Made by a program: the position numbers and the translations under genes
Notes under the pieces: model-generated
What the model saw: the letters and a program-made list of their open reading frames with translations, nothing else
Databases searched by the model: none
Told to the model about the DNA's origin: nothing
Shown here: positions 18,826-53,695 of the stretch, one piece after another
Layout: every line of letters begins with the position of its first letter
Position numbering within the stretch: the first letter of the stretch is position 1
Virus record (IMG/VR): IMGVR_UViG_3300042554_002438
DNA from: a virus
Taxonomy: Duplodnaviria; Heunggongvirae; Uroviricota; Caudoviricetes
DNA length: 64,000 nucleotides
Strand: one strand, 5' to 3'

Positions 18826-19347
18826 TTAAAATTTAATTCTAAGACCCATTTTTTGCATAGCCAATAATGCCTCGGCGTTACCCATAGCATCATCAACGGG
18901 ATTGTGAGTATGTTTTGTTTTTCTATACAAACGTTTCCACTCCTGGTTCTTACTAGCATCCTTAACCAAACCACAATACAAATCACCGATACGTCTGCCA
19001 GAAAACCCGAATGGGTTTCTACCGCAGTACTTATGCATGTACCAGTTAATCCACTGCCAATCAAAGGCTAAGTTATCGCTGATAAAGGTTGGTTTACCTT
19101 CGGAATTTTTAACTAACCATTTTTCGAACTCGCTCATAACCTCATATGGTTCCCCAAACTGTTCATGCTCAGACCTTGAAAACCCACTGACAGCTAACGC
19201 ATCTGGTTTGTATTGATCAGTTAATGGTCTGATCTTACCATAAAACGTTTTTGATGTGTCGGACACTTTAACAACACCGAAACATACAATTGAATGTGTA
19301 CCAACTAATTCACCATCAGCCTCAACATCCACTACAAAATAACTCAT
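18826..19347 (-). CDS. DEDDh 3'-5' exonuclease (DnaQ-like)
   Basis: VVDVEADGE Exo I motif and HNPVDDAMGNAE Exo III motif. Confidence 0.55.
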   Translation of the reverse strand: MSYFVVDVEADGELVGTHSIVCFGVVKVSDTSKTFYGKIRPLTDQYKPDALAVSGFSRSEHEQFGEPYEVMSEFEKWLVKNSEGKPTFISDNLAFDWQWINWYMHKYCGRNPFGFSGRRIGDLYCGLVKDASKNQEWKRLYRKTKHTHNPVDDAMGNAEALLAMQKMGLRIKF

Positions 19348-19778
19348 ATCTTTACTAATTTTTTAATTTCTCTGTCAATATCGCGCTTTTTAATTGTCTC
19401 GCGTTTATCGTAATTCTTTTTACCCCTAGCAATAGCGATTCTACATTTTATCTTACCAGAACCATTCAAGTAAAACCAAAACGGAACGATTGTTAAACCT
19501 TTTGTCAAACTGTTCTGAATCTTTCGGATTTCTGTTCTGTGTAAAAGTAATTTTTTATCACGATTCTCATCATGACCAAAAAATTCGCTATTTGTGGTTA
19601 TTTTAAAATTTTTGATGAACATTTCGTCATCCTTGATATAGCAAAACGCATCAACTATGCTAATTTTACCATCCTTAATTGCTTTAACTTCAGAGCCAAA
19701 AAGAATAATACCAGCCTCATACTCTTGAAGGTATTCATAATCAAATTTTGCTTTTCTATTTGTAACTAAAGTTTTCAC
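19344..19778 (-). CDS. smpB: SsrA-binding protein SmpB
   Basis: NRKAKFDYEYLQEYEAGIILFGSEVKAIKDGKISIVDAF...KLLLHRTEIRK...IARGKKNYDKRETIKKRD collinear with E. coli SmpB. Confidence 0.85.
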   Translation of the reverse strand: MKTLVTNRKAKFDYEYLQEYEAGIILFGSEVKAIKDGKISIVDAFCYIKDDEMFIKNFKITTNSEFFGHDENRDKKLLLHRTEIRKIQNSLTKGLTIVPFWFYLNGSGKIKCRIAIARGKKNYDKRETIKKRDIDREIKKLVKI

Positions 19779-23964: not shown

Positions 23965-24294
23965 TTATTTTATAGTTACTTTTATGCTAACACCAATCGT
24001 ATCTATTTGATAATCCGAATATATCTTGATTGTTTTTTCATTATCTTCGTAGGTACCAGCATCACCATTAAAAAACAAAATAAACTTTTCACCAAAATAA
24101 ACCTCGTTAGATTTATAATTTGTATCTTTATTGATTATCTCGTACTTATATTCTAGTTTGTCTTTTTTATGATGGTTGTATAATAAAAAAGAAAATCCTA
24201 TCAATATATGCACTGATAGGAACACACTTAAAATGAGTTTAAAATTTTCTTTGAAAAATTCTAAGATTCGATTAGTTTTCGTCTCCTGGTTCAT
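23965..24294 (-). CDS. membrane-anchored hypothetical protein
   Basis: 109 aa with an N-terminal TM helix. Confidence 0.4.
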   Translation of the reverse strand: MNQETKTNRILEFFKENFKLILSVFLSVHILIGFSFLLYNHHKKDKLEYKYEIINKDTNYKSNEVYFGEKFILFFNGDAGTYEDNEKTIKIYSDYQIDTIGVSIKVTIK

Positions 24295-24817
24295 AATTCA
24301 ATTGTTTAAGTATTATATAGTCGTTCGTTTGAATGTATAAGTTGTTTTTACGCATCAGGGTAATAAATGAGTCTAACGGACTTGTTAATGGGAAATATTC
24401 GATGACATCGGATGGTATCCCATAATTTATATAATTAAACCCAGATAATCTGCGATATTTCTTCTCTCTACCCATTTGTTTATAAGGTCGACCAGAATCA
24501 TCAATAAAATTAAACTCTTCCCAGCCATCTGGATCGCGTTTAGGTATATCCCAAGTTTCCTCGTATTTTGGTAACTTTTCAATAACCTCATTCAATAATT
24601 CTGGGTTTTCACCACATTGTGTGACAGTACCCATTAGTTTGTAATTTTTCGATTCCCCTGGATTAAATTCAAACAAGATGTTACCATCGCTGGTGATTTT
24701 GCCCCATGCGTGATCCATTGTGATGTTTTCTCTAGGTGAATCAATCTCTATCAACAATAATTTGTTCTTTATTGTGTATACTTCAATTGGATTCCATATC
24801 GCTTTTAAGTCTTGCAT
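24272..24817 (-). CDS. hypothetical protein
   Basis: 181 aa ORF. Confidence 0.45.
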   Translation of the reverse strand: MQDLKAIWNPIEVYTIKNKLLLIEIDSPRENITMDHAWGKITSDGNILFEFNPGESKNYKLMGTVTQCGENPELLNEVIEKLPKYEETWDIPKRDPDGWEEFNFIDDSGRPYKQMGREKKYRRLSGFNYINYGIPSDVIEYFPLTSPLDSFITLMRKNNLYIQTNDYIILKQLNYEPGDEN

Positions 24818-26916: not shown

Positions 26917-27513
26917 TTAAATTATTTGATCGATAACACCATTTTTCAAAGCTTCTTCTGCCGAAAAATACCAATCTTTTTTAAGATTTTTGATTTGGTC
27001 AAGTTGTTTCTGTTTCAGACGAGTACAATCAATTAAATGTGCGTCATAAACCATCATAATCCTTTTGGTTTCTTCAAGATTTTCCTTCAATATACTAAGT
27101 TTATCGTATGGCATTTGATCCAAACACTCATGATACATGTATGTCGATAACTTGTGTCCGTATCTTTTATCCCCAGATACTAATACAAGTAGAGCCATCG
27201 ACATAGCAGAACCAAAACAATAAGTATAGACCTCGGTATTCGAACTCTCTATTGCCGCGATTAAAGCAAAGCCATCATATACCGATCCCCCAAAGCTATT
27301 CACAATCAATTTTATTGGCTTACGTTCATAATCAACCAAATTCTCTTGGTTCTCGTCATCATACTCATTAATCTCAGCAATATATTGGATTATATCGCCT
27401 ACGGAAGATTCATCTATCTCGCTACTTAGTGTGATCGTCCTTGATGGATTTTCCCTATCAAAAGAAAAATACCTATTCTTCTTTTTGTTCTGGTTTTTTA
27501 ATTTCATATTCAT
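26917..27513 (-). CDS. ClpP-family serine protease
   Basis: LIVNSFGGSVYDG...CFGSAMSMAL...YMYHE aligns to the ClpP Ser/His catalytic region (INSPGGSV...GQAASMG...MIHQP). Confidence 0.65.
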   Translation of the reverse strand: MNMKLKNQNKKKNRYFSFDRENPSRTITLSSEIDESSVGDIIQYIAEINEYDDENQENLVDYERKPIKLIVNSFGGSVYDGFALIAAIESSNTEVYTYCFGSAMSMALLVLVSGDKRYGHKLSTYMYHECLDQMPYDKLSILKENLEETKRIMMVYDAHLIDCTRLKQKQLDQIKNLKKDWYFSAEEALKNGVIDQII

Positions 27514-27811
27514 ATGTCAACCATGGTTTTTTTTGTTGGGTGTTTAGTGCCTCAACTATCTTATTATAATTTTCTTCATAAAATCTTTCACCGTCTTCCG
27601 AATTTGCCCAAAATAGAAATCCTGGTTCAGTCTGCGTCCTCCCCAGGATTTCTTTTGTTGCTCTTCTATCTTTTTTAAGAAATGAAATACTAACATAGTT
27701 CAGTATAAACTTCCCATCAGTCTTTGACCAATACGCCAGTTGGCCAAATTTTTGTTTGTTCTTTACTCTGGCATTTTCAATAATCTCTATTAAAAATTTA
27801 ACATTTCCCAT
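27473..27811 (-). CDS. hypothetical protein
   Basis: 112 aa ORF. Confidence 0.4.
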   Translation of the reverse strand: MGNVKFLIEIIENARVKNKQKFGQLAYWSKTDGKFILNYVSISFLKKDRRATKEILGRTQTEPGFLFWANSEDGERFYEENYNKIVEALNTQQKKPWLTYEYEIKKPEQKEE

Positions 27812-29193
27812 TAACTAGATTCTTCCATATCAACCACACCCGAGTCTTTAACTATACCCTCAAGAACCTTAAACTCAAAAGATTTGTGTTTGTAAATTCT
27901 AGGTACCAGACCAGATTCTAATCTGACACATACACCCTCACGGATATGGGTATCATCGAGCATTGATTTACCTTTAGAATAAATATCAACAAGTTCAGTA
28001 ATCTTGTCATTAAAATCCCTATCACCGTTTATACTTGGATAGGTTAATTCCATTTCAATTCTTCTGAAACGTGTTATCTCTGGAACATGTTTTACACCTA
28101 TCTCATTACATCTTTTAACAACATCATCCCAAGTGTAATCAACTGATTGGCCATCTGGGTTGGTCATTGTCATACGGTACACATAAAAGTCTTGTTGGGC
28201 TGTCGAACAACCATATGAGTAAACCATGTGCTTTTTATCGCCCATGTTGGAATACTGTTTCGTGAATTCCTTATCACCCATTTTACTTGTATCAACAGAT
28301 GGCATGATTGGCGTATTCTCATTCTCATAACCAACAATCTCAAGATAAACAGTCTCACCTTTTCTTAGATTACCTTTGAAAAGAGCGAAAGCTTTATCTC
28401 TTATGGTTGGATCATGGAATTGGGTTGCATTTGATTTAGCCTCCTCCAAAACAACTCTGCGTGTACCAGTTAAATAAGCCCATTCAGTCTCGTTTATCTT
28501 GATACCAAGCTTAATCAATAATCTTTCAAACCAATTTAAATCACGGTCAACCAACACATGCCCAACTCTATGAGAAGTTCCGTGTAGTTTTTCTGTGATG
28601 ACAACCAAATCCTCACGATTTATTTGATGTACATTCTTACCAAAATGTTCGGTATCAATATGTTCCTTGAACATAACCGAAGTTTTTGCCACTCTGGTTT
28701 TTTTACCTTGGTTTTGTTGAGCGGCTTTTATTGTGTTCGGGTTGATGTACTTATTACAAATTGGTACACCACCCCATTCATCAATCTCAAGACCCTCATC
28801 AACCAGACCAGTCACATAAATGAAACCAAAACTGTGTAATGGTGTCCAGAAACCATCTGAGATTTCCCCACGAAATCTCTGGGCCCTAACCCTACGGTTA
28901 TCATCAAACATACCAGCTTTATCATCTGGGAATTTGTTCTTTGTTTTATCTCGATATAAGTTATTCGCATGGCAAAACTCATGAGATAACTGACCATCAC
29001 ATGGGAAGTATACCCCCCAATGATCTTCTTTGCAATCTAAACCAACCACCACTTGATTACCGTGGCATGTCGCTAATTGCACCTTATCCGCATTAGGATG
29101 CGGTCTAACGTTTTTAAGTTTTGTTACTATTCCTTTATACATATTTTTTACTTTGATTCTACCATTACGTAAGTACCCTCTACCATACCCCAT
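27811..29193 (-). CDS. ATP-dependent RNA ligase (Rnl2/Rnl5-like) with an N-terminal OB/tRNA-binding-like domain
   Basis: nucleotidyltransferase motif I ITEKLHGTSHRV (KxHGxx, as in T4 Rnl2 EKIHGTN); N-terminal ...RPHPNADKVQLATC... resembles tRNA-binding OB folds. Confidence 0.6.
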   Translation of the reverse strand: MGYGRGYLRNGRIKVKNMYKGIVTKLKNVRPHPNADKVQLATCHGNQVVVGLDCKEDHWGVYFPCDGQLSHEFCHANNLYRDKTKNKFPDDKAGMFDDNRRVRAQRFRGEISDGFWTPLHSFGFIYVTGLVDEGLEIDEWGGVPICNKYINPNTIKAAQQNQGKKTRVAKTSVMFKEHIDTEHFGKNVHQINREDLVVITEKLHGTSHRVGHVLVDRDLNWFERLLIKLGIKINETEWAYLTGTRRVVLEEAKSNATQFHDPTIRDKAFALFKGNLRKGETVYLEIVGYENENTPIMPSVDTSKMGDKEFTKQYSNMGDKKHMVYSYGCSTAQQDFYVYRMTMTNPDGQSVDYTWDDVVKRCNEIGVKHVPEITRFRRIEMELTYPSINGDRDFNDKITELVDIYSKGKSMLDDTHIREGVCVRLESGLVPRIYKHKSFEFKVLEGIVKDSGVVDMEESS

Positions 29194-29429
29194 GAAGATT
29201 CTTCATGAAAGTAATATGTTTCTGGTACGTCTTTGTCTGTCATAGGTCTTGTCAGATACCATAATTGTGACCCTTTCCAAGTGACATTTAACAATTTTTG
29301 ACCTTTTGGTAAATGCAATGTGGCCTCACCGCCCCAGTTTTTAACCCGAGAGTTATCAGTACAGGATGTAAATAAACAAACTGAAATAATGGCCGCCCAA
29401 ATAGATGCGATGATAATAATTTTTCTCAT
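29148..29429 (-). CDS. putative lipoprotein
   Basis: MRKIIIIASIWAAIISVCLFTSC signal peptide with lipobox; the ORF-track start at 29450 is a TTG, so the internal ATG at 29429 is preferred. Confidence 0.45.
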   Translation of the reverse strand: MRKIIIIASIWAAIISVCLFTSCTDNSRVKNWGGEATLHLPKGQKLLNVTWKGSQLWYLTRPMTDKDVPETYYFHEESSWGMVEGTYVMVESK

Positions 29430-29440
29430 ATTATTTTTAT

Positions 29441-29480
29441 TAAGGTACAAAGATAGTGATTATTTTTTTAATTCGCAAAT
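29441..29480 (-). promoter_or_regulatory. promoter-like motif copy
   Basis: aggtacaaagatagtgattatttttttttaattcgcaaat. Confidence 0.4.
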
Positions 29481-29506
29481 AAAAAAACCCCACAGAGGGG
29501 GTTTTT
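29480..29506 (-). terminator. rho-independent terminator (bidirectional hairpin)
   Basis: A7-ccccacagaggggg-T6; downstream of the thioredoxin gene. Confidence 0.6.
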
Positions 29507-29528
29507 TAAAAAAAAATTCATATTAAAT

Positions 29529-29855
29529 TTAAATAGAGAATATTTCTGCGAGTTGATCTATGAATTTATTCTTTGGTACATAACCGCTTTTAGTAGCGAT
29601 TTTTGCCCCATTCTTGTAATATAAAAGGGTTGGAATTCCTCTTACATTATTTTTTGCAGCTAACTCTGGACAATTATCCACGTTAACTTTGCATATTTTA
29701 ACGATACCAATTTGATCCGCAGTTTCTTCTAGAACTGGGGCTAAAGATTTACAAGGGCCGCACCATTCAGCGTAGAAATCAACCACTACCTTATCTTGAC
29801 TTGAGATTATTTTTTCGAAATCGCTTTCATTTTCAATTGAAATTACATTTGACAT
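29529..29855 (-). CDS. trxA: thioredoxin
   Basis: WCGPCK active site; 108 aa. Confidence 0.85.
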   Translation of the reverse strand: MSNVISIENESDFEKIISSQDKVVVDFYAEWCGPCKSLAPVLEETADQIGIVKICKVNVDNCPELAAKNNVRGIPTLLYYKNGAKIATKSGYVPKNKFIDQLAEIFSI

Positions 29856-29910
29856 ATTAATTTTATTAATTTTTTATTATTTTATACAACTATAAATATA
29901 CAAATTTTGT

Positions 29911-30702
29911 TTATAATGATAAATCGTTTAATGAATAAATTCTTTTATAGCCAACATTATATCTTCGGTTATGTTCGCAATCCATAAGAAATGTGCATAT
30001 ACCAGCGTTGTTCAATTCAACAAAATTTTCATATCTATCATCAACAAACCAATCGATACCAGATTTTTTTGCTACCTCAACTTTTGATTGGTCAAACCCG
30101 ATACTATAAACTGGAACCGCTGGGAAATTCCACTTTTTTAACCACTCTTCAGTCCATTCCCTGGGAATTGATCTTGATGTGATATAACAATGTGGCTCAA
30201 ATGGTAGGTCTTTTGGGGTCACTTTGGGCTCAATGTTGAGCCAGAAATCCTTATCATCTCGCATTAATTCGAATTTTTCCTTAATATTTCTATCAAAATT
30301 CCAAAATAACACTGGTTCAATGATACCATGTCTTTTTGTCCAAGCGCCTAACCAATCAGCTAAAACTTCATCAATATCCAACCCTATCTTTGGTGGGTTA
30401 AGGTACCGATGTCGTCTATCATCACCTTGTGGGTGTATCTTATAGAACTCGGTTAAAAAAGCTGCGTTTGTTAATACATGTGAAATATGTAACAATCCAC
30501 TTTCAGGATCATGGTCTTCACCGTTCTTAAAAGCATTCAAGTGCCTCTCAAGTGATGCTATTACCTCAGACCATTGTAGGCCGTTCTCCCAATCCCTTTC
30601 GCCGTATATCTCAGCACCCTTCATAAGTGCTGTCGCTAACTGGTTATACGCAAATGGGGGAACCAGGTCATAGCGAGGTTTATCTTTTTTTTCTCTATTC
30701 AT
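29911..30702 (-). CDS. fusion: dNTP pyrophosphohydrolase-like N-domain and 5'(3')-deoxyribonucleotidase (NT5C-like HAD) C-domain
   Basis: N-terminal DKPRYDLVPPFAYNQLATALMKGAEIYGERDWENG (phage dATP/dGTP diphosphohydrolase-type motif); C-terminal KIGLDIDEVLADW (DxDxV HAD motif I of NT5C). Confidence 0.5.
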   Translation of the reverse strand: MNREKKDKPRYDLVPPFAYNQLATALMKGAEIYGERDWENGLQWSEVIASLERHLNAFKNGEDHDPESGLLHISHVLTNAAFLTEFYKIHPQGDDRRHRYLNPPKIGLDIDEVLADWLGAWTKRHGIIEPVLFWNFDRNIKEKFELMRDDKDFWLNIEPKVTPKDLPFEPHCYITSRSIPREWTEEWLKKWNFPAVPVYSIGFDQSKVEVAKKSGIDWFVDDRYENFVELNNAGICTFLMDCEHNRRYNVGYKRIYSLNDLSL

Positions 30703-30704
30703 AG

Positions 30705-31286
30705 TTATTGATTAATGTTGAAGGCTCGATCATATGCCCCATCTAGTATAATCTTTTTATGGAGTTTCATTGTTATTTCAGCATCATATAAAGCATTATG
30801 TTGACCACCATTCTTATCCAAGCCAAGTATTAGGTGCCTATTTTTTTTAGGATCGTGATACCAAATCTTTAAAACTGTTGCCATATCATATGGTTGATAT
30901 CCGTTAAAATTATTTGGTAATTTTCTGGACGGTTCTCCCATAAAATATAAATCCATGAATAAAACCCAATCAAAAGCTAAAGTATCACCCCAAAACTCAA
31001 TATCCTTAAATTGTTTTAACCAAGTAACTAAAGCATCTGATATTGTTTGTTTATCTTGTTTTATGGTGAAGGATTTATTCTCCTCGTCATTTTCAAAAAA
31101 ATGAACGTATTCGGAATATGTGAGCTTGGGTATAACATTATCTTTAATCCATTGGTCACATTGTGATTCATCGTAGTCATTAAATTCAGCGTAAAATTTA
31201 TGACCATTTTCTGTTATCATCCCTAAAGAAATGGGTGTGGTTGCTTTATGCAAACCAGTAAATTCAAAATCAAAAAATATTCTCAT
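30705..31286 (-). CDS. DEDDh 3'-5' exonuclease
   Basis: FFDFEFTGL Exo I motif and HNALYDAEIT Exo III motif. Confidence 0.65.
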   Translation of the reverse strand: MRIFFDFEFTGLHKATTPISLGMITENGHKFYAEFNDYDESQCDQWIKDNVIPKLTYSEYVHFFENDEENKSFTIKQDKQTISDALVTWLKQFKDIEFWGDTLAFDWVLFMDLYFMGEPSRKLPNNFNGYQPYDMATVLKIWYHDPKKNRHLILGLDKNGGQHNALYDAEITMKLHKKIILDGAYDRAFNINQ

Positions 31287-31310
31287 GGTACAAATATAGG
31301 TTATTTATTT

Positions 31311-31727
31311 TTATTTAGCAACTTTATTTAATTTTAATACAAATTCAGTTAAATCAGTCGTATTGTAATTAGCCATTTTCTCATCAATCGAACCATTAAT
31401 AGAATCTTTAATTAAATTGTAATTTTCTTCTTTTAAAAATTTCAAAGACTCATCATCAGACCATATTTTATCGCCCCAGGGATGTATAAAAAATTGTTTC
31501 AAAGTCATATTGATTGTTGGTACTGGTTGTTTATGACCAGCAACAATTTCAGGTATTCCTATTTCTTCGGTTAAGTAAAAAAATAGAATCGCTTTACGCT
31601 CACTAAGAATGGTGATTAATTCTTCCATCTTTGGAAGAGCTAAACGATCGTGTATATTGCGATGATGATTAATCGTTCTATGTAAATCGTTTAGCTTTTC
31701 TACAACCTGTTCGTTTGTATAAAACAT
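31311..31727 (-). CDS. hypothetical protein
   Basis: 138 aa ORF. Confidence 0.45.
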   Translation of the reverse strand: MFYTNEQVVEKLNDLHRTINHHRNIHDRLALPKMEELITILSERKAILFFYLTEEIGIPEIVAGHKQPVPTINMTLKQFFIHPWGDKIWSDDESLKFLKEENYNLIKDSINGSIDEKMANYNTTDLTEFVLKLNKVAK

Positions 31728-31728
31728 G

Positions 31729-32172
31729 TTAATCGATTATAGTTTCAATTGTATGGGGCACTACCCATCTAGCGCAGTCTTGGGGTAAGCGATGGATATG
31801 TTTATAGTTATTTATATAACCCATCATGTTTGCTGAACCGACAGCATTAGCTGAATGAACCATTACCTTACAAACAGGCGCACCATTCAACCACTGTTCA
31901 ACTAACCATTTAGTGCAGTCCATACCAGTTTTTTCGGTGATGTTATCATAGTTCAATTGATAATTGTGATAAACATTTGTGTGCCATTCTTTCATCGCAC
32001 TATCACCAAGATCATGATCAAGTGATATTAAATCAATATTCTCTAAACCAATTTCGGTTATTTTGGAAACAAACTCATCGTAGTCTCTGACAACAGTCCA
32101 CTCGATTGTCATGTGTGTTGACGGGTTAGGTAAAGGCGTCCTAAGATCGTCTAAGTATATATTATATCTCAT
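31729..32172 (-). CDS. hypothetical protein
   Basis: 147 aa ORF. Confidence 0.45.
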   Translation of the reverse strand: MRYNIYLDDLRTPLPNPSTHMTIEWTVVRDYDEFVSKITEIGLENIDLISLDHDLGDSAMKEWHTNVYHNYQLNYDNITEKTGMDCTKWLVEQWLNGAPVCKVMVHSANAVGSANMMGYINNYKHIHRLPQDCARWVVPHTIETIID

Positions 32173-32567
32173 AATTTTATCTCAAATCTATTTTTCATTA
32201 TTTCTAATTTATCTTCTGGTACACCGTGTATGTTTTTACCACCATGCCTATTTTCTACGATTAAAGATGTTACTTTGTAATCGTAGTATTTAGCTTTTTC
32301 GTAGTAGAAATCCATTTCCCATTCTTGGGTAAATGTGTTAGATACTATGATTATCGATGTATCGTTAGCCATAGCTTTTTCCGTTTGGATCATACACCAG
32401 TTGTGTGCCATTTTAATATCGGCTGGGTTAAACTTGTATTCTCCGTCCTTCATGAAATACATGTCAGCTTCAAAGTGAGCATATCCAGCACCCTTTGCAC
32501 CGATTAAATCAGCGACTGTTGACTTACCACTTCCAGGCAATCCGCGTAATAATATTAAATCTTTCAT
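32169..32567 (-). CDS. polynucleotide 5'-kinase (T4 Pnk kinase-domain-like P-loop kinase)
   Basis: GLPGSGKST Walker A; HFEADMYF and IIIVSNTF...NRHGGKNIHGVPEDKLEIM collinear with the T4 Pnkp N-domain (GCPGSGKST...NRDDYR...ISDTN...RNSKRGTKAVPIDVL). Confidence 0.55.
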   Translation of the reverse strand: MKDLILLRGLPGSGKSTVADLIGAKGAGYAHFEADMYFMKDGEYKFNPADIKMAHNWCMIQTEKAMANDTSIIIVSNTFTQEWEMDFYYEKAKYYDYKVTSLIVENRHGGKNIHGVPEDKLEIMKNRFEIKL

Positions 32568-33025
32568 TTTTTTACTTCTTTTGTTTTTATTTCTCTTAAA
32601 TCTTCTGTTGGTACAATTGTTAAAACATCATACCTACCTCGTCTGCGATACATTTTATACGGTTCGGGTTCATCTGTAACAACCATCATTAATTTATCCT
32701 CAACCATCTTAATTAAATTGTCTCGTTTAACAACCAACCAAGAATCATCAGTTTCGAATGAAATGTAATCAGCCATACCATATAACCAACCAGGTTTACC
32801 GTGAACATTTTCGATCTCAACCCAATGTATAGCTGGGTCAACACTTGCATCCGAACGGCTAATTTTTTTCAAACCCTTTATATCAAACTTAATATTATCT
32901 ATTTGAACATCCCAATGTTCATTAATATCTTGTTCGGTTGTTGGGTAAACAAGTTCGTGACCAGGTTTACTAACCAAATCAACAAACTCTTTTTCTTTTA
33001 ATTTACCATCAGACAAAAACCCCAT
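32564..33025 (-). CDS. hypothetical protein
   Basis: 153 aa ORF. Confidence 0.45.
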   Translation of the reverse strand: MGFLSDGKLKEKEFVDLVSKPGHELVYPTTEQDINEHWDVQIDNIKFDIKGLKKISRSDASVDPAIHWVEIENVHGKPGWLYGMADYISFETDDSWLVVKRDNLIKMVEDKLMMVVTDEPEPYKMYRRRGRYDVLTIVPTEDLREIKTKEVKK

Positions 33026-33504
33026 TACGCCAATCTAAACTGATTTATAAATGTTCTAATTTTATAGTTAGTTTCACCACCAATAGCTTCAATAAACAAA
33101 TCAATCTCTTCGTTAGTTGCGAATGGTTGCGGTTCTGGGTATTTTGTTTTATTAAAGATTCGTTCATCGATAATAAAAACAATCGCCGTTAACTGGTCAC
33201 CCAAATCTGGTTCATAAAATGCCGCATGTGGAATACCCAGGTCTAATAAAGCCATCAAGTGTCTATTCATAGAACCAAACGGTAGGCCATCGTCAGTACT
33301 CATATTGGTATTTGTTGTACCACCATTCAGAATAATGAATGTCTTCCAATTATCAGCCCAATCTTTATAGATAGCTTCCATGTTTTTCACACCATCACAA
33401 TTTCTACTATACTCAACAACAGCGTGTCCAAATTGGATGCCTTGTTGAATTGGTGATATATTATACGGAACCAACCCGTACATTCTAAGTTCTAATCTTT
33501 CCAT
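33025..33504 (-). CDS. hypothetical protein (weak PTH2-like GxIxxQxxHA pattern)
   Basis: IQQGIQFGHAVV loosely resembles the peptidyl-tRNA hydrolase 2 motif; not confirmed. Confidence 0.35.
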   Translation of the reverse strand: MERLELRMYGLVPYNISPIQQGIQFGHAVVEYSRNCDGVKNMEAIYKDWADNWKTFIILNGGTTNTNMSTDDGLPFGSMNRHLMALLDLGIPHAAFYEPDLGDQLTAIVFIIDERIFNKTKYPEPQPFATNEEIDLFIEAIGGETNYKIRTFINQFRLA

Positions 33505-33809
33505 TAAAAATCTAATTCAAGTTGTTTAAGTTCGGTATCAATTTCATTTAACACCAATTTATTGTATGATTTGGTTACATCGCGATCATTCAAATCAATA
33601 ATAGTTGGCCCATCCTTTGATTTACCATGTGCCGCAGAAATCAATTCATTATTCTTGTAAACGAAAACAATAGGTTGATACATCTCAAAATATTTTTGAG
33701 ATTGCTCTGGTTGAGCTGGGTTACAAATATCCCAAAGGACTTTGGCGTTAGCTAATCTAACTAATTCAATCGCGTGAGCAGCATTTTTCGGTTTTCTGTA
33801 TGTGTACAT
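33504..33809 (-). CDS. hypothetical protein
   Basis: the ORF-track start at 33851 is a TTG lying inside the promoter-like motif, so the internal ATG (MYTYRK) is preferred. Confidence 0.4.
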   Translation of the reverse strand: MYTYRKPKNAAHAIELVRLANAKVLWDICNPAQPEQSQKYFEMYQPIVFVYKNNELISAAHGKSKDGPTIIDLNDRDVTKSYNKLVLNEIDTELKQLELDF

Positions 33810-33816
33810 AATTTTT

Positions 33817-33858
33817 TTTACAAAGATAAGAATAAAATTTTTAATATGCAAATTTATG
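33817..33858 (-). promoter_or_regulatory. promoter-like motif copy
   Basis: tacaaagataagaataaaatttttaatatgcaaattt. Confidence 0.4.
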
Positions 33859-34369
33859 AAAAAGTTAAAATTATATCCTTAACGGTATCATCGTTTGTGT
33901 GTGTCCTGGCCGTTAATAACTTATACTTCTCAAAAAATGGGTCGTACTCTGATGAAAAATATTGATATTTATTCAACTCGTCTATATTTTTCGCAAAATA
34001 TTCATTGACCATAATTCTTTCACTTGATGTGGTCTGCATAAGCATTATGTAAACCAAGAAACCATCATCAGTTGTTAAAAAAACAACGTTATTTTTAAAA
34101 TTGATTGATATGAAATTTAAAAAATCGTCATTAATCATACCCGAATATTTGAATGGGCATAATTTATACAGAACACCCATCTGGCCAATCAATATCGGTT
34201 GTATTTCTTGATTAAAAGAATTGGTGATAAATATATTATCACCATTTTCTTCAAGGATTTTTGCAAAAAAAATATCCTTGAACACATTCTTATTTAAGTC
34301 AATATAATACTTTATGATTTTGTTAAAAGCCTCATCAAAAAATTTTGGATCTTTCATTTTAACCATCAA
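33854..34369 (-). CDS. hypothetical protein
   Basis: 171 aa ORF. Confidence 0.45.
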   Translation of the reverse strand: MMVKMKDPKFFDEAFNKIIKYYIDLNKNVFKDIFFAKILEENGDNIFITNSFNQEIQPILIGQMGVLYKLCPFKYSGMINDDFLNFISINFKNNVVFLTTDDGFLVYIMLMQTTSSERIMVNEYFAKNIDELNKYQYFSSEYDPFFEKYKLLTARTHTNDDTVKDIILTFS

Positions 34370-35460
34370 CTTATCGCATATATTCTTTTTCTAAAACGAA
34401 TTAACAAGTCGTCAACAAATTTTCTATCAACAGAATTAGGTAGATCTGATTTTGCGTAAAGGTCATCCAAAAGTGTGATTTTTGATTCCGCTTCGGCAAG
34501 AAGATCCTCATATTCAGCATCACCATTTCTTATTTTAAGTAATTCCTCAGCATCTGGTCTTTTGACGATCACTTGTTTAAGTTCGGCAATCTCGGTTGCC
34601 ATACGTATCAACCTAATACAGTGCATCATATTTTTTGAATCATAACCCTTACCATGTTCTTGGTTTGTGTTATATCGATCGTCATTACGCTTTTCAACCC
34701 AATCCCAGTATTCCTTATAATCTTTACAGTAAGAAGTATAACCATCCTTGTTATAGATAATTGTCGCAACTGGCTTTTCGCCAAATGGAATGGAACTTAA
34801 TCTAACCTCATTCGATGTGTCATCATCATTGACGATGCCACGATAACCGAGCCTAGAATTTTCTTTACTGGCGTAATGATCATAAAACATGGCGTATACA
34901 TCTCTGGCATGTGGTACATTAACCAAACCACATTTGTTCTGTACATAACCACTATTGTCCAAAAATGCTTTGAGTGGGATCGATTTATAACCATCGACAA
35001 CATAGCAAAAATCCAATATAGATTTGCGCTCTTTGTCAACTGGGTTTACAATTTTTTTGTTTAACCCGCGAGCTTTTTTAATTTGTGCGACAGCGTACCC
35101 ACCAAATGAATCGCGGCAAACTTTACTGATGAACTTATCCTTATGTTGTAGAATCATATCAAACATTGGGTGTTTGTAAAGTATATTCTCTTCGGGCATA
35201 TTGAATAACTCAATTATGTTTGGGTTTTGCGATTGTAATAATTGCAAGAACCTACCAATCTCATAGTAGACAGCATCATTTGTGGCATCCGAAACTTGTT
35301 CAATATAGTCATATCCCAGTACGTTATCAAGCGGTAAGTAGTAAACTCCACGATAATCGGTATCGGATGTTGGTTTGTGTGTACCATACGCCCTTGATCC
35401 AGATATTGTTTCAAACAATAAAAGTCCATTCGTTCTTAAATAATCTATCGTTAATCGCAT
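34366..35460 (-). CDS. Pol-beta-superfamily nucleotidyltransferase (RlaP-like; RNA-repair associated)
   Basis: GSRAYGTHKPTSDTDYRGV = GS...[DE]x[DE] nucleotidyltransferase motif with a helical C-terminal domain. Confidence 0.5.
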   Translation of the reverse strand: MRLTIDYLRTNGLLLFETISGSRAYGTHKPTSDTDYRGVYYLPLDNVLGYDYIEQVSDATNDAVYYEIGRFLQLLQSQNPNIIELFNMPEENILYKHPMFDMILQHKDKFISKVCRDSFGGYAVAQIKKARGLNKKIVNPVDKERKSILDFCYVVDGYKSIPLKAFLDNSGYVQNKCGLVNVPHARDVYAMFYDHYASKENSRLGYRGIVNDDDTSNEVRLSSIPFGEKPVATIIYNKDGYTSYCKDYKEYWDWVEKRNDDRYNTNQEHGKGYDSKNMMHCIRLIRMATEIAELKQVIVKRPDAEELLKIRNGDAEYEDLLAEAESKITLLDDLYAKSDLPNSVDRKFVDDLLIRFRKRIYAIS

Positions 35461-35936
35461 ATCATTTCTAATTTAAACCATTCGGGTATTTCTCTTTTTG
35501 TCCACTTAGCGAAATCGGCTTTAGCACCTATGTAATAATTTCGGTACGATTGAACCACCGAATAACCAACTTTATATTCGTCAGGCATAGCCATCGGTGG
35601 TGTTGTTGCACCAACATCCCTGGGTAACATTGGTACGTTCTTAGCGCACCATTCAATGATCGCTTCAGATTTATGTACCTTACCGTATCGGTATGTATAT
35701 TCTTCACACAACGCTAAACCAATTTCACAAAGATACTCATAATTCTCATCACTTTCTCTGACCCATTTTGCGCAGGGGTGGTTTTTGTGGCTAAGTTTGT
35801 ATGGCGCTTCTGAACCAACCATCCAGCAAGCTCCACATAATAATTGTGCTGTTTCAAGAATCATCTTCACAACATGCTTATCACAATGATATTCAGCAAT
35901 TTTACGTGGGTTAGTGTCTAAAAAGAATATATTCAT
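35451..35936 (-). CDS. hypothetical protein
   Basis: 161 aa; N-terminus loosely resembles Pdg/endoV-type glycosylases but is unconvincing. Confidence 0.4.
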   Translation of the reverse strand: MNIFFLDTNPRKIAEYHCDKHVVKMILETAQLLCGACWMVGSEAPYKLSHKNHPCAKWVRESDENYEYLCEIGLALCEEYTYRYGKVHKSEAIIEWCAKNVPMLPRDVGATTPPMAMPDEYKVGYSVVQSYRNYYIGAKADFAKWTKREIPEWFKLEMICD

Positions 35937-35948
35937 ACCTTATTTTTC

Positions 35949-35989
35949 AACAAAGATACGCAAATATTTTTAATTCGCAAATTTTTTTG
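35949..35989 (-). promoter_or_regulatory. promoter-like motif copy
   Basis: caacaaagatacgcaaatatttttaattcgcaaattttttt, 12 nt upstream of the ATG at 35936. Confidence 0.45.
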
Positions 35990-36100
35990 TAAAATTAGGG
36001 TATTTATGATTAAAAAGCGGTGACAGTTTGTCAGTAAGCATAAAATTAAATCTAACACATATGGACAGTGAGAGTTATAGGAGTGAAAAAAAGAGTGACA

Positions 36101-38521: not shown

Positions 38522-40606
38522 ATGGCACAAAAAGTATCATATACAGGGGTTTTCTTGGACAAGGATTCAAGAGCCGTATTAGAAAAAGAGTTCAAATCGC
38601 AGGTTCCTGATGGATGGGAGTGGATTGCGCATCATATGACCATAACTTTAGGGGAAATGGTTGATAAATCGGAATTGGGTAAACAAGTTGCCCTTAATAT
38701 AGTTTCATTTGGTAAAGATGATAAAGTCATGGCAATTGGTGTCAAGGGTTACCCTAGTAAAAATGAAAAACCGCACATTACTTTAGCCGTTAATCGCGCT
38801 GAGGGTGGTAAACCTTATATGAGTAATTTAATTAAGGAATGGGTACCATACTCGATCGGTGCCATATTAACTGGTGTTGTCAGTGAATACCCGCCACAAT
38901 CTAAAGAAACACTTAATGAAGCTTATGATATTAAATCATTACCGTTCTATAACGATGTTATCAATAAAAACGGTAAAATATATCAGGTTGGTGGGGCTGT
39001 TAGAGATTTGTATCTGGGTAAACAATCTAAAGACCTTGACATCGTTATTAGTGGAATACCAGCTAAGGAACTCGAAGATGTGTTGAAAAAATATGGTAAA
39101 GTTGATATGGTTGGTGCGTCATTTGGTGTTATTAAGTTCACACCACCAGATGGTGAAGAAATTGATATTGCAATACCAAGAACTGAAAAGAAGAGTGGTG
39201 TTGGTTATCAGGGTTTTGATGTGTCGGCTGATCACACTCTCCCTATCGAAAAGGATCTTGAGAGAAGAGATTTCACAATAAATTCAATCGCTAAAGATAG
39301 TGATGGGAATGTTATTGATCCATTCGGTGGGTTAAAGGATCTTGATTCGAAGGTTATCAAATTAACAAACCCTAAGGCTTTTTCAGATGACCCATTAAGG
39401 ATGTTAAGGGCGATTCAATTTGCGTCTAGGTTTGGTTTTAAAATAGATGAGGAAACGTTTGATGCTATTAAAAAGAATGCGATGACTATTGACGAAATAT
39501 CAAAAGAGAGAATATTGATAGAGTTTGATAAAATCGTAAACAAAGGTAATCCCAGAGTCGGAGCTGAGTTATTAGTTTCAAGTGGATTGTACAGGGGCAT
39601 ATTCGGTACCGAGTTTGATGGTGATTTTGAACCGTTTGACCAAGTAACTAGGAACAGTGAGTTCGCTTACTGGTTGATCCAATCGTTCACCGAACAACCA
39701 GACCAATACTATAAGAATATAATGAAAGGTGACATCGATACGGCTAGAGAGATATCAGCTTTGGCTTATATGTATAACAACTTACCTGGTAACGACAAAG
39801 CAAAACAAAGATTTGTTTATTTTAATATAAATAAGATATCACCACAGATGTTTAATAGTAATTTCGTGAGAAGTATATTGAGTGATGTTATCAATGACTT
39901 TGATTCTCAAAAATACCCAGCTGGTTATTCGGATTTAAAAGTCAATGGTAATGATTTAATGGCAATGGGTTTAAAAGGTAAAGCTGTTGGTGATATGTTA
40001 AATAAATTAATCTCTGCAATATATTCTGATAAAATTGAAAATACAAAGAATGGTTTGTTGGGTTTTGTTGAGAGGAATAAGGATATGTTAAATGAATCTG
40101 TTGGTGGTACAAATAAGAATAGAGTTGTGTTTTATGATTTTGATGGTACTTTAATGGATAGTCCACTTCCTGACACAGGTAAACAAATCTATAAAGAAAA
40201 AACTGGTAATGTATACCCACATCAAGGTTGGTGGGGTCGTGCTGAGAGTTTGGATTTAAATGTCTTCGACATAAAAACAAATCCAGATGTTGAGGCTAAA
40301 TTTAGAGCTGACTCATCGGATCCAAATACGCATGTTGTTTTATTAACCAATAGGTTGTCAAAACTTGAGGAACCAATTAAAAAAGTTCTTGACAAACATA
40401 ATATGGTATTCGATTTTTATTCTTTTAAAAATGATGGTCGTGAAAAGGGTGAACGTGTTTTGGATATTTTAGCCAAAGTATATCCGAATACGAATGAAAT
40501 TGAATTTTATGATGACGATGAGCGACACATTCAAAATGTAAGAGATAATTTAATCGACACCGATTACGATTTCAAGGTGAATCAAGTTATTGATGGTAGA
40601 TTATAA
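38522..40606 (+). CDS. tri-domain RNA end-healing enzyme: 2H phosphoesterase, CCA-adding nucleotidyltransferase (class II) and HAD 3'-phosphatase
   Basis: N-terminal HHMTIT and PHITLA = two H-x-T/S-x motifs of 2H/LigT CPDases; middle GGAVRDLYLG...DLDIV...RRDFTIN...DPFGGLKDL...DPLRMLRAIQFA = CCA-adding/poly(A) polymerase head domain; C-terminal VVFYDFDGTLMD (DxDGT), LLTNR and YDDDERH = HAD phosphatase motifs as in the T4 Pnkp C-domain. Confidence 0.8.
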   Translation: MAQKVSYTGVFLDKDSRAVLEKEFKSQVPDGWEWIAHHMTITLGEMVDKSELGKQVALNIVSFGKDDKVMAIGVKGYPSKNEKPHITLAVNRAEGGKPYMSNLIKEWVPYSIGAILTGVVSEYPPQSKETLNEAYDIKSLPFYNDVINKNGKIYQVGGAVRDLYLGKQSKDLDIVISGIPAKELEDVLKKYGKVDMVGASFGVIKFTPPDGEEIDIAIPRTEKKSGVGYQGFDVSADHTLPIEKDLERRDFTINSIAKDSDGNVIDPFGGLKDLDSKVIKLTNPKAFSDDPLRMLRAIQFASRFGFKIDEETFDAIKKNAMTIDEISKERILIEFDKIVNKGNPRVGAELLVSSGLYRGIFGTEFDGDFEPFDQVTRNSEFAYWLIQSFTEQPDQYYKNIMKGDIDTAREISALAYMYNNLPGNDKAKQRFVYFNINKISPQMFNSNFVRSILSDVINDFDSQKYPAGYSDLKVNGNDLMAMGLKGKAVGDMLNKLISAIYSDKIENTKNGLLGFVERNKDMLNESVGGTNKNRVVFYDFDGTLMDSPLPDTGKQIYKEKTGNVYPHQGWWGRAESLDLNVFDIKTNPDVEAKFRADSSDPNTHVVLLTNRLSKLEEPIKKVLDKHNMVFDFYSFKNDGREKGERVLDILAKVYPNTNEIEFYDDDERHIQNVRDNLIDTDYDFKVNQVIDGRL

Positions 40607-42621: not shown

Positions 42622-42681
42622 ACTTCTTTATTTTATTATAAATAGTATGAGATAAATAAAAGTAATAAAAAATTAGATTTG

Positions 42682-42752
42682 AGCTGGTAGTTGGAATCGA
42701 ACCAATCTCTATAAGTTTTGCAGACTTATTGCACTCCATGTACATTACCAGC
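42682..42752 (-). tRNA. tRNA-Cys (GCA)
   Basis: hand fold: GCTGGTA/TACCAGC acceptor, TAAGT-CTGCAAA-ACTTA anticodon arm, TTCGATT T-loop; short D-loop. Confidence 0.65.
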
Positions 42753-42759
42753 ATATTAG

Positions 42760-42830
42760 CACGGGTGGAAGGATTCGAACCTCCATCGCTGGTTTTGGAG
42801 ACCAGCATTCTACCATTGAAATACACCCGT
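42760..42830 (-). tRNA. tRNA-Trp (CCA)
   Basis: ACGGGTG/CACCCGT acceptor, CTGGT-CTCCAAA-ACCAG anticodon arm. Confidence 0.7.
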
Positions 42831-42837
42831 ATATTGT

Positions 42838-42989: not shown

Positions 42990-43001
42990 ACTCTCCATTT
43001 G

Positions 43002-43077: not shown

Positions 43078-43082
43078 TTTTG

Positions 43083-43155: not shown

Positions 43156-43162
43156 ATGTTTG

Positions 43163-43682: not shown

Positions 43683-44525
43683 CTACCTGTTGGTGGGGAT
43701 TAAGTTATTTAAATATTCTCTATTTTGAGTAAAGATTGGTGTTTCGACATCCAATTCCCAAGCGCTTCTGGTGTAAACATCCTTTGGATCAATCACAACC
43801 GTATCACGATTGACTTCCGCATTGGCACTTTTACGAACAAACGTCTTTTCAATTTTTCTGATTATACCACCACGTTTTTCTCTTGGTGAGTAATCATTCC
43901 AATTTGTACCAGCCTGAAATATCAATTCTTGCATACCATCGGTCTTAACCCCATGTAATTGTTTTGGTGAGTATAAACTCTGAGCGACCGATGAAATTGA
44001 ATTTCTGGTCGCATCTTGTTGTCTCCAGATGAAATAATTCTCAACCTCAACTTTTTGTGGGATTTGAAATACCCTGGCATCAAACATAGCCAATTTAGGT
44101 TCGCTGGCGTATCTTTTATCCGTCACAGACTTTCTCTCGATAACATGTAGATTCTTAATATAACGATCCATTCTCAATTTATTAAAGATGGCTGTTGCCA
44201 TTGAGGCTGAAACGCTCGCCATTTTCTGTAAGTTATTATCGAACCAAGCTTGTGTGCCCTCATCTTCAAAATCGGTGATCAAAATTGAAATCTCATCTGA
44301 TTGCACATACGCAAACTTAGCACCCATAATGTTTTTACATAGATATGCCGCTGTCTCATCCATATCATCAATCAAATCCAAATCAAATGGCCTTCTCAAA
44401 CCTTTTGTATAGGTGTGAAAAGCCTTACCATCAATTCTGATAATGGTGTAACCTCTTCTTGGTAATGAAATACGAGTTCTATCCTCATAGTTCGATTTCA
44501 TTCTGTCTCCTAATGCGTCTTTCAT
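43683..44525 (-). CDS. Thg1-like protein (tRNA-His guanylyltransferase / 3'-5' nucleotidyltransferase family)
   Basis: RIDGKAFH, YVQSDEISIL (conserved QSDE catalytic motif) and FIWRQQD collinear with Thg1 (RLDGRNFH, YGQSDEYSF, LSWRQAD). Confidence 0.75.
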   Translation of the reverse strand: MKDALGDRMKSNYEDRTRISLPRRGYTIIRIDGKAFHTYTKGLRRPFDLDLIDDMDETAAYLCKNIMGAKFAYVQSDEISILITDFEDEGTQAWFDNNLQKMASVSASMATAIFNKLRMDRYIKNLHVIERKSVTDKRYASEPKLAMFDARVFQIPQKVEVENYFIWRQQDATRNSISSVAQSLYSPKQLHGVKTDGMQELIFQAGTNWNDYSPREKRGGIIRKIEKTFVRKSANAEVNRDTVVIDPKDVYTRSAWELDVETPIFTQNREYLNNLIPTNR

Positions 44526-53310: not shown

Positions 53311-53319
53311 AAATTTCTG

Positions 53320-53695
53320 TGGAGTCGGAGGGATTCGAACCCTCGTCTCGTTTAGCCATTCAATAATTCTCATTCACATGCTTAGTTCATTTTTCTAAAC
53401 AAACAAAATATTTGTCTTCACTAACCCAGAAGTTCAATAAAACTGGAATACCTTTTTTGGAGTTCCCACCTCCCACCTGGCATCTAAGGGTTTTTGCAGT
53501 TTTAACTGACAGTTGTTGGCTTACGCCAATTCGTAGTCTGCAAACTCAACTGGCTGACCGTTCAACACGATGTTGCCTTCAGCGTCAATGTAGCTTTCGC
53601 CATCTGAAATTGTGTATAGGTTATTTAAGTGTTTCCGATACTAACACCACATGCAAATTAAAGAACGAATCTACCGATCGATTCCAGTCGACCCC
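53320..53695 (-). ncRNA. ssrA: candidate tmRNA (ssrA)
   Basis: 376-nt RNA with a tRNA-Ala-like tRNA-like domain: 5' GGGGTCG pairs with 3' CGACTCC (G3-U70 wobble, A73); GAGGG-TTCGAAT-CCCTC T-arm; 5' GGGGTCGACTGGAATCGATCGG resembles the tmRNA consensus GGGGCUGAUUCUGGAUUCGACGGG; internal frame ...GCA GAC TAC GAA TTG GCG TAA; SmpB is encoded at 19344..19778. Confidence 0.55.

Follow-up and report, generated by a model that had tools for sequence, protein, structure and literature searches.

The 64,000-nucleotide stretch of the virus record IMGVR_UViG_3300042554_002438 (Caudoviricetes), here called the window, contains a compact block of genes on the minus strand, from 35936 to 27473. Together with partner genes elsewhere in the window, this block probably equips an uncultured jumbo phage for repairing RNA breaks and rescuing ribosomes. 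The block encodes an ATP-dependent RNA ligase, a polynucleotide-kinase-type kinase, a cREC (cyclic-phosphate-processing receiver-like) domain protein, a nucleotidyltransferase of the RlaP family and an exoribonuclease, while the partners outside it are a tri-domain end-healing enzyme, two HAD phosphatases, a Thg1-like enzyme, SmpB, a tmRNA and 27 tRNA genes (Table 1). An earlier reading of the sequence alone, made without database searches (the sequence-only reading), had proposed a tRNA repair toolkit here, and all the open reading frames (ORFs) that it named are present where it placed them, on the minus strand.

In the block all genes are co-directional, and neighbouring genes either overlap at their stop and start codons by 1–10 nucleotides (nt) or are separated by gaps of no more than 55 nt, the sole exception being the gap upstream of a small lipoprotein-like ORF. 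Read in the direction of transcription, the order is a DenV-like glycosylase, RlaP, two uncharacterised ORFs, a conserved 159-residue protein that is tentatively PTH2-like, one uncharacterised ORF, the kinase and cREC, followed by a further uncharacterised ORF, the exoribonuclease, a MazG-like/NT5C fusion, thioredoxin, the lipoprotein-like ORF, the ligase, one more uncharacterised ORF and ClpP. The toolkit had been described as dispersed, which does not apply to its core. Sites fitting promoter or terminator consensus sequences between 26500 and 38600 are no more frequent than in shuffled sequence, so the operon structure is argued from gene spacing alone.

Related loci, designated by L-numbers (L001, L005 etc.), were compared with the window using the identity of the ligase homologue as a measure of relatedness. 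The order of the block is kept in L001 (a 358-kb metagenomic contig), L005 and L006, where the ligases are approximately 70% identical to that of the window and the block once more has the tri-domain enzyme, HAD_SAK_2 genes and SmpB at its flanks. It is partly kept in L011, L012 and L020. In most relatives with 61–66% identical ligases, and in loci with 37–44% identical ligases, it is not kept, except that RlaP adjoins the ligase in L023 and Thg1 does so in L027. In the window 5.2 kb separate RlaP from the ligase, and this linkage is retained in all six of the loci where the order is wholly or partly kept. These features of gene order and its conservation, together with the domain identities and conserved catalytic residues described below, are direct observations.

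The ligase gene is also found close to tRNA genes, lying within 3 kb of them in 11 of 27 related loci, and this proximity extends to lineages with only 37–41% identical ligases (distances of 148, 340, 822 and 1147 nt). Independent linkages occur in unrelated phages. Homologues of the kinase are present in 626 phage records, and several of the best-matching ones, from Pseudomonas and Aeromonas phages, abut an Rnl1-type ligase gene. In the 137-kb Vibrio phage 496E54-1, a homologue of the 159-residue protein lies between a CCA-adding enzyme and RlaP, which ties this family independently to the kit.

The window is phage-like, with nearly every gene on the minus strand, a guanine plus cytosine content of about 35% and many tRNA genes. 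A megablast search with positions 27000–36000 against 50,697 GenBank phage records gave no match. The ligase, by contrast, has more than 6,000 metagenomic homologues, many of them from contigs of very large size (identities of 90%, 69% and 63% on contigs of 307, 358 and 385 kb, respectively), and its closest cultured match, at 47% identity, is in the 349-kb Vibrio phage 2.275.O. Given these homologues on very large contigs and in a Vibrio phage of jumbo size, the source of the window is most likely an uncultured jumbo phage.

The ligase matches the Pfam family RNA_ligase (PF09414; 3e-9, 37.6 bits, cutoff 27), and its N-terminus matches the PHA02142 OB domain (residues 23–119, 28.6 bits, cutoff 27). 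It belongs to phrog_968 (3e-65). Motif I, which the sequence-only reading had given as EKLHGT, is present in the string ITEKLHGTS, and K202, H204 and G205 within it are invariant in 37 homologues, as are E285, E419/G420 and K435/K437, so that the nucleotidyltransferase (NTase) motifs I, III, IV and V are all kept. Motif V (K435, K437) is only 23 residues from the end of the 460-residue ORF, leaving no C-terminal appendage. The ligase is predicted to seal nicks between a 3′-OH on RNA and a 5′-phosphate by way of a lysyl-AMP intermediate.

An AlphaFold2 model of the ligase was built on the alignment of homologues (predicted local distance difference test, pLDDT, 78) and compared with the PDB using Foldseek. 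The best match is Naegleria NgrRnl (E-value 1e-14, over about 445 columns), followed by REL1 (7e-7), Rnl3 (5e-6) and T4 Rnl2 (9e-6), with DNA ligases at 2e-3 or worse. On this ranking, in which RNA ligases are far ahead, the readings as a DNA ligase or a capping enzyme were rejected. Further matches of the N-terminal OB domain are to OB folds that bind tRNA, at E-values of 7e-4 to 4e-2, namely those of PheRS beta (6oz5, 1pys), GatB-YtpR (9a77), 3bu2 and the C-terminal domain of MetRS (5h34). At the sequence level, direct phmmer searches of PDB sequences with the ligase, the kinase and RlaP found nothing, and a profile of the ligase gave only a marginal match to the N-domain of NgrRnl (E-value 0.16).

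KxHG-type motifs I are found in T4 Rnl2 and REL1, and the KLHG of the present ligase is of this type. This motif is Rnl2-like, as the protein as a whole had been called in the sequence-only reading. Rnl2 enzymes are recognised by a C-terminal domain and have no N-terminal OB domain, the reverse of what is seen here, and the matches to T4 Rnl2 and REL1 lie well behind that to NgrRnl. As defined by Shuman, Rnl5 ligases consist of an N-terminal domain and an NTase domain with no C-terminal appendage (PMC4408790). Given the order of OB and NTase domains and the missing C-terminal domain, the modelled architecture is therefore that of Rnl5, as in Deinococcus DraRnl and Naegleria NgrRnl, and not Rnl2. 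Phage homologues of DraRnl have been noted before (PMC4408790). Unlike NgrRnl and DraRnl, the ligase is approximately 100 residues longer, through insertions in the NTase domain, is only 16–17% identical to NgrRnl and falls far under the TIGR02306 cutoff (see below). Judged by sequence, it is a divergent, longer and phage-specific branch, represented by phrog_968. Its homologues are about 443 residues long and cover 96% of the query; because of this length, and because the lipoprotein-like ORF fills the space upstream, the true start is probably M18 (29142).

The kinase, of 132 residues, has a P-loop (GLPGSGKS) and matches AAA_33 (6.6e-8, 33.4 bits, cutoff 27), phrog_2071 (4e-39) and phrog_505, 'polynucleotide kinase' (8e-9). 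The catalytic residues of T4 Pnkp include K15, S16 and, about 20 residues downstream, the general-base aspartate D35, and all three are in register in a BLASTP alignment with T4 Pnkp (from NC_000866), which covers residues 1–37 without gaps at 49% identity. A finding that would have told against the sequence-only reading was a ligase from a DNA-ligase or capping clade together with an unrelated kinase; what is seen instead is a ligase closest to RNA ligases and a kinase related to phrog_505 and T4 Pnkp.

The start codon of cREC overlaps the stop codon of the kinase by 4 nt, and the pair is kept in L001 and L005. The domain is a clear match to PF20274 (5e-22, 78.8 bits, cutoff 27), with D8, D9, D52, H53, D54, K88, H106 and S107 invariant in 30 homologues; D8, D9 and D52 are acidic residues of the receiver type. 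Domains of this family are predicted to open 2′,3′-cyclic phosphates, and their linkage to RNA ligases has been noted (Iyer et al., PMC7824862). A search with the two proteins joined, aimed at finding a kinase–cREC fusion, returned stand-alone cREC proteins as its top matches, and the N-terminus of one 304-residue match (P0249) is unrelated to the kinase, so the search gave no evidence of a fusion. In the Pseudomonas phage Pyxpy02 the ORF that follows the kinase homologue was tested as a candidate cREC, and is not one.

RlaP is confidently identified by PF10127 (3e-20, 73.3 bits, cutoff 23) and phrog_388 (4e-53, residues 14–358). It contains the GS...DxD motif of Pol-beta nucleotidyltransferases (SGSRAYGTHKPTSDTD), and shares 32% identity over its whole length with the RlaP-like protein of Vibrio phage 496E54-1. 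The two tandem phosphatases both match PF18143, HAD_SAK_2 (1.5e-21, 77.7 bits and 4.2e-20, 73.0 bits; cutoff 27.5), a family described as 'HAD domain in Swiss Army Knife RNA repair proteins'. They are paralogous, with 38% identity across the N-terminal 78 residues. HAD motif I (DxDG) reads FLDNDGV and FLDIDGV in these two proteins, and YDFDGT in the tri-domain enzyme.

The tri-domain enzyme, which the sequence-only reading had recognised as a healing enzyme, lies on the plus strand. It combines a CCA-adding nucleotidyltransferase (PolyA_pol 1e-24, PolyA_pol_RNAbd 2.5e-15; NCBIfam CCA tRNA nucleotidyltransferase 2e-53) with a C-terminal phosphatase domain, HAD_SAK_1 (PF10307; 1e-7, 32.4 bits, cutoff 25.6). 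The N-terminus has a weak match to tRNA_lig_CPD (0.002) and carries two HxT motifs, HHMTIT and PHITLA. This is the only 2H-type domain found in the window. The ORF at 24272–24817 was compared with a weak 2H protein of L001, and no similarity was seen.

The exoribonuclease matches PF16473 over its full length (6e-11, 42.8 bits, cutoff 27), with the DEDDh residues at D6/E8, D105 and H162/D167. Its match to the PDB entries 6s0m and 4oke (5e-6 to 1e-5) covers only the N-terminal 56 residues. Against the NCBIfam model RNase_AS it scores 1e-12 and 48.3 bits, where the equivalog cutoff is 200, and a specificity for adenylate is therefore not established. A second exonuclease had been counted as part of the kit. 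It does have the DxE, D and Hx4D motifs, as proposed, and both proteins are DEDDh enzymes by motif; its RNase_T score is 20.3 bits (cutoff 24), its best PHROG match is phrog_192, 'DNA polymerase exonuclease subunit' (2e-9), and no homologue was found in the syntenic relatives. Support for a role in RNA is thus confined to the first exonuclease, and membership of the second in an RNA kit is doubtful. The remaining family assignments of the sequence-only reading (RNA ligase with N-terminal OB domain, AAA_33/polynucleotide kinase, RlaP, the first exonuclease and the tandem HAD phosphatases) are all borne out by scores above the Pfam cutoffs.

The conserved 159-residue protein belongs to a family of approximately 3,500 members, which has no Pfam model and is annotated as 'hydrolase' in phrog_3668. 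It is tentatively suggested to be PTH2-like, that is, to have a peptidyl-tRNA hydrolase fold; sequence-level tests failed to confirm membership of PTH2. The stop codon of the Thg1-like 3′-5′ nucleotidyltransferase is 12 nt upstream of tRNA-His (43595–43671). This tRNA gene encodes G-1, C73 and CCA, implying that Thg1 is not needed for its routine maturation. In some relatives (e.g. L010, L015), the ends of the tRNA-His genes located by ARAGORN suggest A73 and no encoded CCA, with G-1 encoded.

SmpB and the tmRNA gene are about 34 kb apart. The tmRNA, which was missed by ARAGORN, was identified with Rfam over the complete length of the model, and the phage is predicted to encode a complete trans-translation pair. 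SmpB and tmRNA have already been reported for huge phages (PMC7162821). An ORF on the plus strand (53412–53705) overlaps the tmRNA and is probably spurious.

Table 1. Features of the window discussed in the text, in order of position.
Feature	Position	Strand	Basis or remark
Lone tRNA-Met	17775-17849		ARAGORN
Second DEDDh exonuclease	18826..19347	-	RNase_T below cutoff
SmpB	19344..19778	-	Pfam SmpB 6e-48; kept in L001, L005, L006
Tandem HAD_SAK_2 phosphatases	22530-23138, 23140-23712	-	PF18143
ClpP protease	26917-27513	-	
ATP-dependent RNA ligase, N-terminal OB + NTase	27811..29193	-	Pfam, PHROG, AlphaFold2/Foldseek
Small lipoprotein-like ORF	29148-29450	-	signal peptide and lipobox-like ...LFTSC motif
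MazG-like dATP/dGTP diphosphohydrolase fused to NT5C nucleotidase	29911-30702	-	
DEDDh 3′-5′ exoribonuclease, Rv2179c/RNase AS-like	30705..31286	-	PF16473
Uncharacterised interleaved ORFs	31311-31727, 32564-33025, 33504-33851, 33854-34369	-	
cREC domain protein	31729..32172	-	PF20274
Stand-alone P-loop polynucleotide-kinase-type kinase, 132 residues, no phosphatase domain	32169..32567	-	AAA_33, PHROG
Conserved 159-residue protein, PTH2-like candidate	33025..33504	-	phrog_3668 'hydrolase'; family without Pfam model
RlaP family Pol-beta nucleotidyltransferase	34366..35460	-	PF10127
Tri-domain enzyme: 2H/CPD-like phosphoesterase + CCA-adding nucleotidyltransferase + HAD_SAK_1	38522..40606	+	Pfam, NCBIfam
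tRNA arrays, 26 genes	42681-45342, 53726-54798, 57285-60404	-	ARAGORN + Rfam
Thg1-like 3′-5′ nucleotidyltransferase	43683..44525	-	Pfam Thg1 1.7e-26; phrog_4717 3e-85
tmRNA gene	53317..53695	-	Rfam RF00023, 78.8 bits (gathering score 47), model 1-374 of 374

On the basis of homology and gene linkage, these proteins can be arranged in a pathway, in which each enzymatic step, the use of tRNA as substrate and the anti-defence purpose are predictions. Host anticodon nucleases or ribotoxins would leave 2′,3′-cyclic phosphate and 5′-OH ends. The cyclic phosphate would be opened by the 2H domain of the tri-domain enzyme, by cREC or by both, and the HAD_SAK phosphatases (two stand-alone, one fused) would strip the remaining phosphomonoester to give a 3′-OH, while the kinase would phosphorylate the 5′-OH. 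Frayed 3′ ends may be trimmed by the RNase AS-like exonuclease, one or two lost 3′ nucleotides may be restored by RlaP, and the CCA-adding domain and Thg1 could rebuild the 3′ and 5′ termini of the tRNA. The Rnl5-type ligase would then seal the 3′-OH/5′-phosphate break. SmpB, tmRNA and possibly the PTH2-like hydrolase would release ribosomes that damaged tRNA or mRNA has stalled, and the 27 phage tRNAs could substitute for those beyond repair. RlaP adds one or two nucleoside monophosphates to the 3′-OH of damaged RNA and restores the aminoacylation of over-damaged tRNA (PMC12776372), and has been proposed to restore the nucleotides that 'smart' ribotoxins (RloC, for example) take away (PMC12776372). 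This step is the only one with direct biochemistry behind it, obtained with bacterial homologues (PMC12776372).

Several points weigh against this reading, of which the first concern the individual proteins and their linkage. Of the profiles suggested in the sequence-only reading, PF09414, AAA_33 and PF10127 score above cutoff, but RNA_lig_DRB0094 (TIGR02306) gives 4e-13 and 48.9 bits against an equivalog cutoff of 151.15, in a partial alignment to residues 23–213, the N-terminal half of the ligase. The Pfam match of the kinase is to a generic family, AAA_33. The substrate-binding R38 of T4 Pnkp is F38 in the kinase, and the fused C-terminal 3′-phosphatase domain of Pnkp is absent; by these features the kinase is a stand-alone module and not an orthologue of Pnkp. 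The opening of 2′,3′-cyclic phosphate by cREC is itself a prediction. Most relatives with 61–66% identical ligases have no other gene of the kit within 10 kb. The linkage is that of synteny at the level of a clade, with recurrent pairwise associations, and not of a fixed or universal operon. Further points against RNA repair come from the tRNA genes, from the other contents of the block and from what is known of Rnl5 enzymes, and these lead to other explanations.

The tRNA genes number 27, with one tmRNA, slightly fewer than the roughly 30 tRNA genes first counted. Encoded CCA is absent from 23 of them; the phage tRNAs concerned need CCA completion, and biogenesis may therefore be what the CCA-adding enzyme is for. 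All 23 have C74 (the chance of this is approximately 2e-19), and position 75 is never C (A in 18, T in four, G in one). The trailer is A-rich, typically CAAA, with positions 76–77 mostly A. The same pattern of N73-C74 followed by non-C75 is found in 136/136 CCA-less tRNAs of clade relatives, compared to 19/29 in distant loci (the loci in this comparison include L007, L010, L014–L016, L019 and L031). Since such tRNAs must be trimmed and completed, the building of phage tRNAs may be a function of the CCA-adding domain and perhaps also of the RNase AS-like exonuclease. The uniform C74 and A-rich trailer suggest a specific 3′-processing route.

Part or all of the kit could be housekeeping, maturing and quality-controlling the phage's own tRNAs rather than mending nuclease damage. 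The exonuclease, if it prefers adenylate, would trim the trailer, the CCA-adding domain would complete the end and Thg1 would secure G-1 of tRNA-His, an arrangement in keeping with the resemblance of the exonuclease to the polyadenylate-specific RNase AS model, with the 12 nt between Thg1 and tRNA-His and with the frequent position of the ligase beside tRNA arrays. The adenylate specificity is, however, assumed from a match below cutoff, tRNA-His already encodes what Thg1 would add, and CCA-adding enzymes and 3′ exonucleases are normally supplied by the host. Bacterial tRNA maturation as it is known makes no use of the ligase, kinase, cREC, HAD_SAK proteins or RlaP, and none of the tRNA genes has an intron according to ARAGORN. 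Housekeeping therefore explains only part of the kit, and as an alternative to damage repair we consider it rather unlikely.

The block also holds genes with no connection to RNA: the MazG-like/NT5C fusion, thioredoxin, the DenV-like glycosylase, ClpP and the lipoprotein-like ORF. In addition, the Rnl5 ligases characterised so far seal nicked duplexes, RNA-OH/pDNA nicks among them. A part in DNA repair has been suggested for these enzymes, and Deinococcus that has lost DraRnl is more sensitive to ionising radiation (PMC4408790, PMC5397189). The region might on these grounds serve general nucleic-acid end processing and the nucleotide pool during DNA replication and repair, with the ligase sealing 3′-OH ribonucleotide nicks in DNA, the kinase and phosphatases cleaning 5′-OH and 3′-phosphate DNA ends, and the exonucleases proofreading. 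Pyrimidine-dimer removal by the DenV-like enzyme, dATP/dGTP hydrolysis by the MazG-like protein, thioredoxin and the resemblance of the second exonuclease to a polymerase proofreading subunit would all fit such a function. Against it, RlaP, cREC, HAD_SAK, CCA-adding enzyme, Thg1, SmpB and tmRNA are RNA-specific families, RlaP acts on RNA and not on other macromolecules (PMC12776372), and the ligase recurrently adjoins tRNA genes. We regard a DNA function as very unlikely.

For the phosphoesterases there is a further explanation. cRec and 2H proteins have been proposed to process cyclic ADP-ribose (cADPR) or 2′,3′-cyclic nucleotides, and have been linked to NAD+-centred conflict systems (PMC7824862, section 3.4.8). 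In the window, NAPRTase and a PRPP-synthetase-like protein point to NAD+ salvage. The cREC, 2H, HAD_SAK and RNase AS-like proteins might then mainly destroy immune signalling nucleotides of the host (cyclic oligoadenylates, 2′,3′-cyclic nucleotides, cADPR derivatives), and not heal RNA ends. Set against this are the overlap of cREC with the stop codon of the kinase, its place in one block with RlaP and the ligase, the definition of the HAD_SAK families by their association with RNA repair, and the failure to identify any sponge or further known anti-signalling gene in the window. Such a purpose is improbable, and both it and the DNA function are weaker than the housekeeping explanation.

It is also conceivable, though we hold it to be a long way from likely, that the 3′-end module carries out phage-autonomous tRNA maturation, the exonuclease trimming to C74 and the tri-domain enzyme adding C75-A76, while cREC (which would represent a novel class among RNA 2′,3′-cyclic phosphodiesterases), the minimal kinase and HAD_SAK together act as a 'split Pnkp'. 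If true, this would make the tRNA supply of the phage independent of the 3′-processing enzymes of the host.

RNA repair, which we prefer, has close precedents. RNA-repair and ribosome-rescue systems of jumbo phages were described by Iyer, Anantharaman, Krishnan, Burroughs and Aravind (2021, Viruses 13:63; PMC7824862, section 3.4.9), building on an earlier survey of RNA-repair systems (reference 178 therein), and the countering of tRNA-cleaving host defences has been put forward for them (PMC7824862). The inventories are nearly identical: many tRNAs, an ATP-grasp RNA ligase, polynucleotide kinase, 2H and cRec phosphoesterases, 'Swiss-army-knife' HADs, RlaP, CCA-adding enzyme, Thg1 and PTH2 (tentative here). 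The kit is of a type already described in giant phages, to which the present locus adds a rich further example rather than a new type of system. It differs in that its ligase has an N-terminal OB domain and is of Rnl5 type, where PMC7824862 files phage ligases as Rnl1 or Rnl2; in the presence of SmpB and tmRNA, which are unmentioned there; and in that the core genes form one conserved block with no megablast match in the phage collection.

The pair of Pnkp and Rnl1 by which T4 counters the anticodon nuclease PrrC is a second precedent, sharing with the present kit a 5′ kinase, 3′ end healing and an ATP-dependent ligase, as well as RlaP and tRNA genes. In T4, healing is done by one bifunctional Pnkp, whereas here it would be split among the kinase, cREC/2H and HAD_SAK; the ligase is of Rnl5 type and not Rnl1, and there are additional CCA-adding, Thg1 and trans-translation components. 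The role of the T4 enzymes is genetically proven, whereas that of the present kit is predicted. The sequence-only reading had described the set as larger than the T4 pair. It is in fact larger than was listed, with cREC, Thg1, SmpB/tmRNA and possibly the PTH2-like protein in addition, but the T4 side had been understated, since T4 also encodes Rnl2 and the RlaP protein NrdC.11 (PMC12776372). RlaP is linked to an RNA ligase in the RtcB-RlaP-RtcA operons of Pseudomonas too (PMC12776372). In contrast to these, its partner here is a classic ATP-dependent ligase that uses a 5′-phosphate, and this avoids the mismatch of end chemistry noted for RtcB (PMC12776372).

The compact and conserved block is a good test bed for cREC, for the phage Rnl5-type ligase, for stand-alone HAD_SAK phosphatases and for the RlaP-linked family that has no Pfam model. 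Because biochemically uncharacterised players are found beside partners of known chemistry, a full pathway of healing, filling and sealing could be reconstituted from one locus. The uniform C74 and A-rich trailers of the tRNAs give a simple handle for separating damage repair from the building of phage tRNAs. Should the function of the kit be confirmed, giant phages would be seen to protect the translation apparatus with a modular set of several enzymes, an extension of the T4 Pnkp/Rnl1 model.

Some further genes lie within or near the block. The four uncharacterised interleaved ORFs listed in Table 1 match no Pfam or PHROG family, and are partly conserved with the block (tblastn; L001, L005, L006, L011, L012 and L020). 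The product of one of them (32564–33025, 153 residues) has a D...D-x-K pattern (WDVQIDNIKFDIKGLKK) that resembles the PD-(D/E)xK nuclease motif, without a family match. The lipoprotein-like ORF sits between thioredoxin and the ligase, is not at that position in L001, and may encode a lipoprotein, for example for superinfection exclusion. Synteny between ClpP and the ligase is seen in many relatives.

Elsewhere in the window, a short adenylosuccinate-synthetase-like protein (341 residues; 10295–11320, minus strand) and the MazG-like/NT5C fusion resemble the PurZ and MazZ genes of phages with 2-aminoadenine genomes. The best tblastn matches of the former (37–43%) are, however, to a huge-phage contig and to cellular-type PurA, and the protein may be either a PurZ or a PurA. 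The NAPRTase gene lies beside the PRPP-synthetase-like gene (13998–16518, minus strand), a pairing similar to one that adjoins the kinase–ligase pair in Pseudomonas phage Pyxpy02. Genes for a carbamoyltransferase, a C-methyltransferase, two FkbM methyltransferases, a GDP-mannose 4,6-dehydratase and an epimerase are interleaved with the tRNA arrays (46428–52264 and 56192–56800, minus strand; 61148–62958, plus strand), and suggest that a modified sugar is made, or that DNA or a surface structure is hypermodified. The minus strand also encodes a 620-residue SPFH/Band 7 protein (11810–13672), a ferritin-like protein (19865–20500) and a 483-residue protein with tyrosinase and polyphenol-oxidase domains (6469–7920; Pfam 1.5e-26), a combination that we do not know from any other phage.

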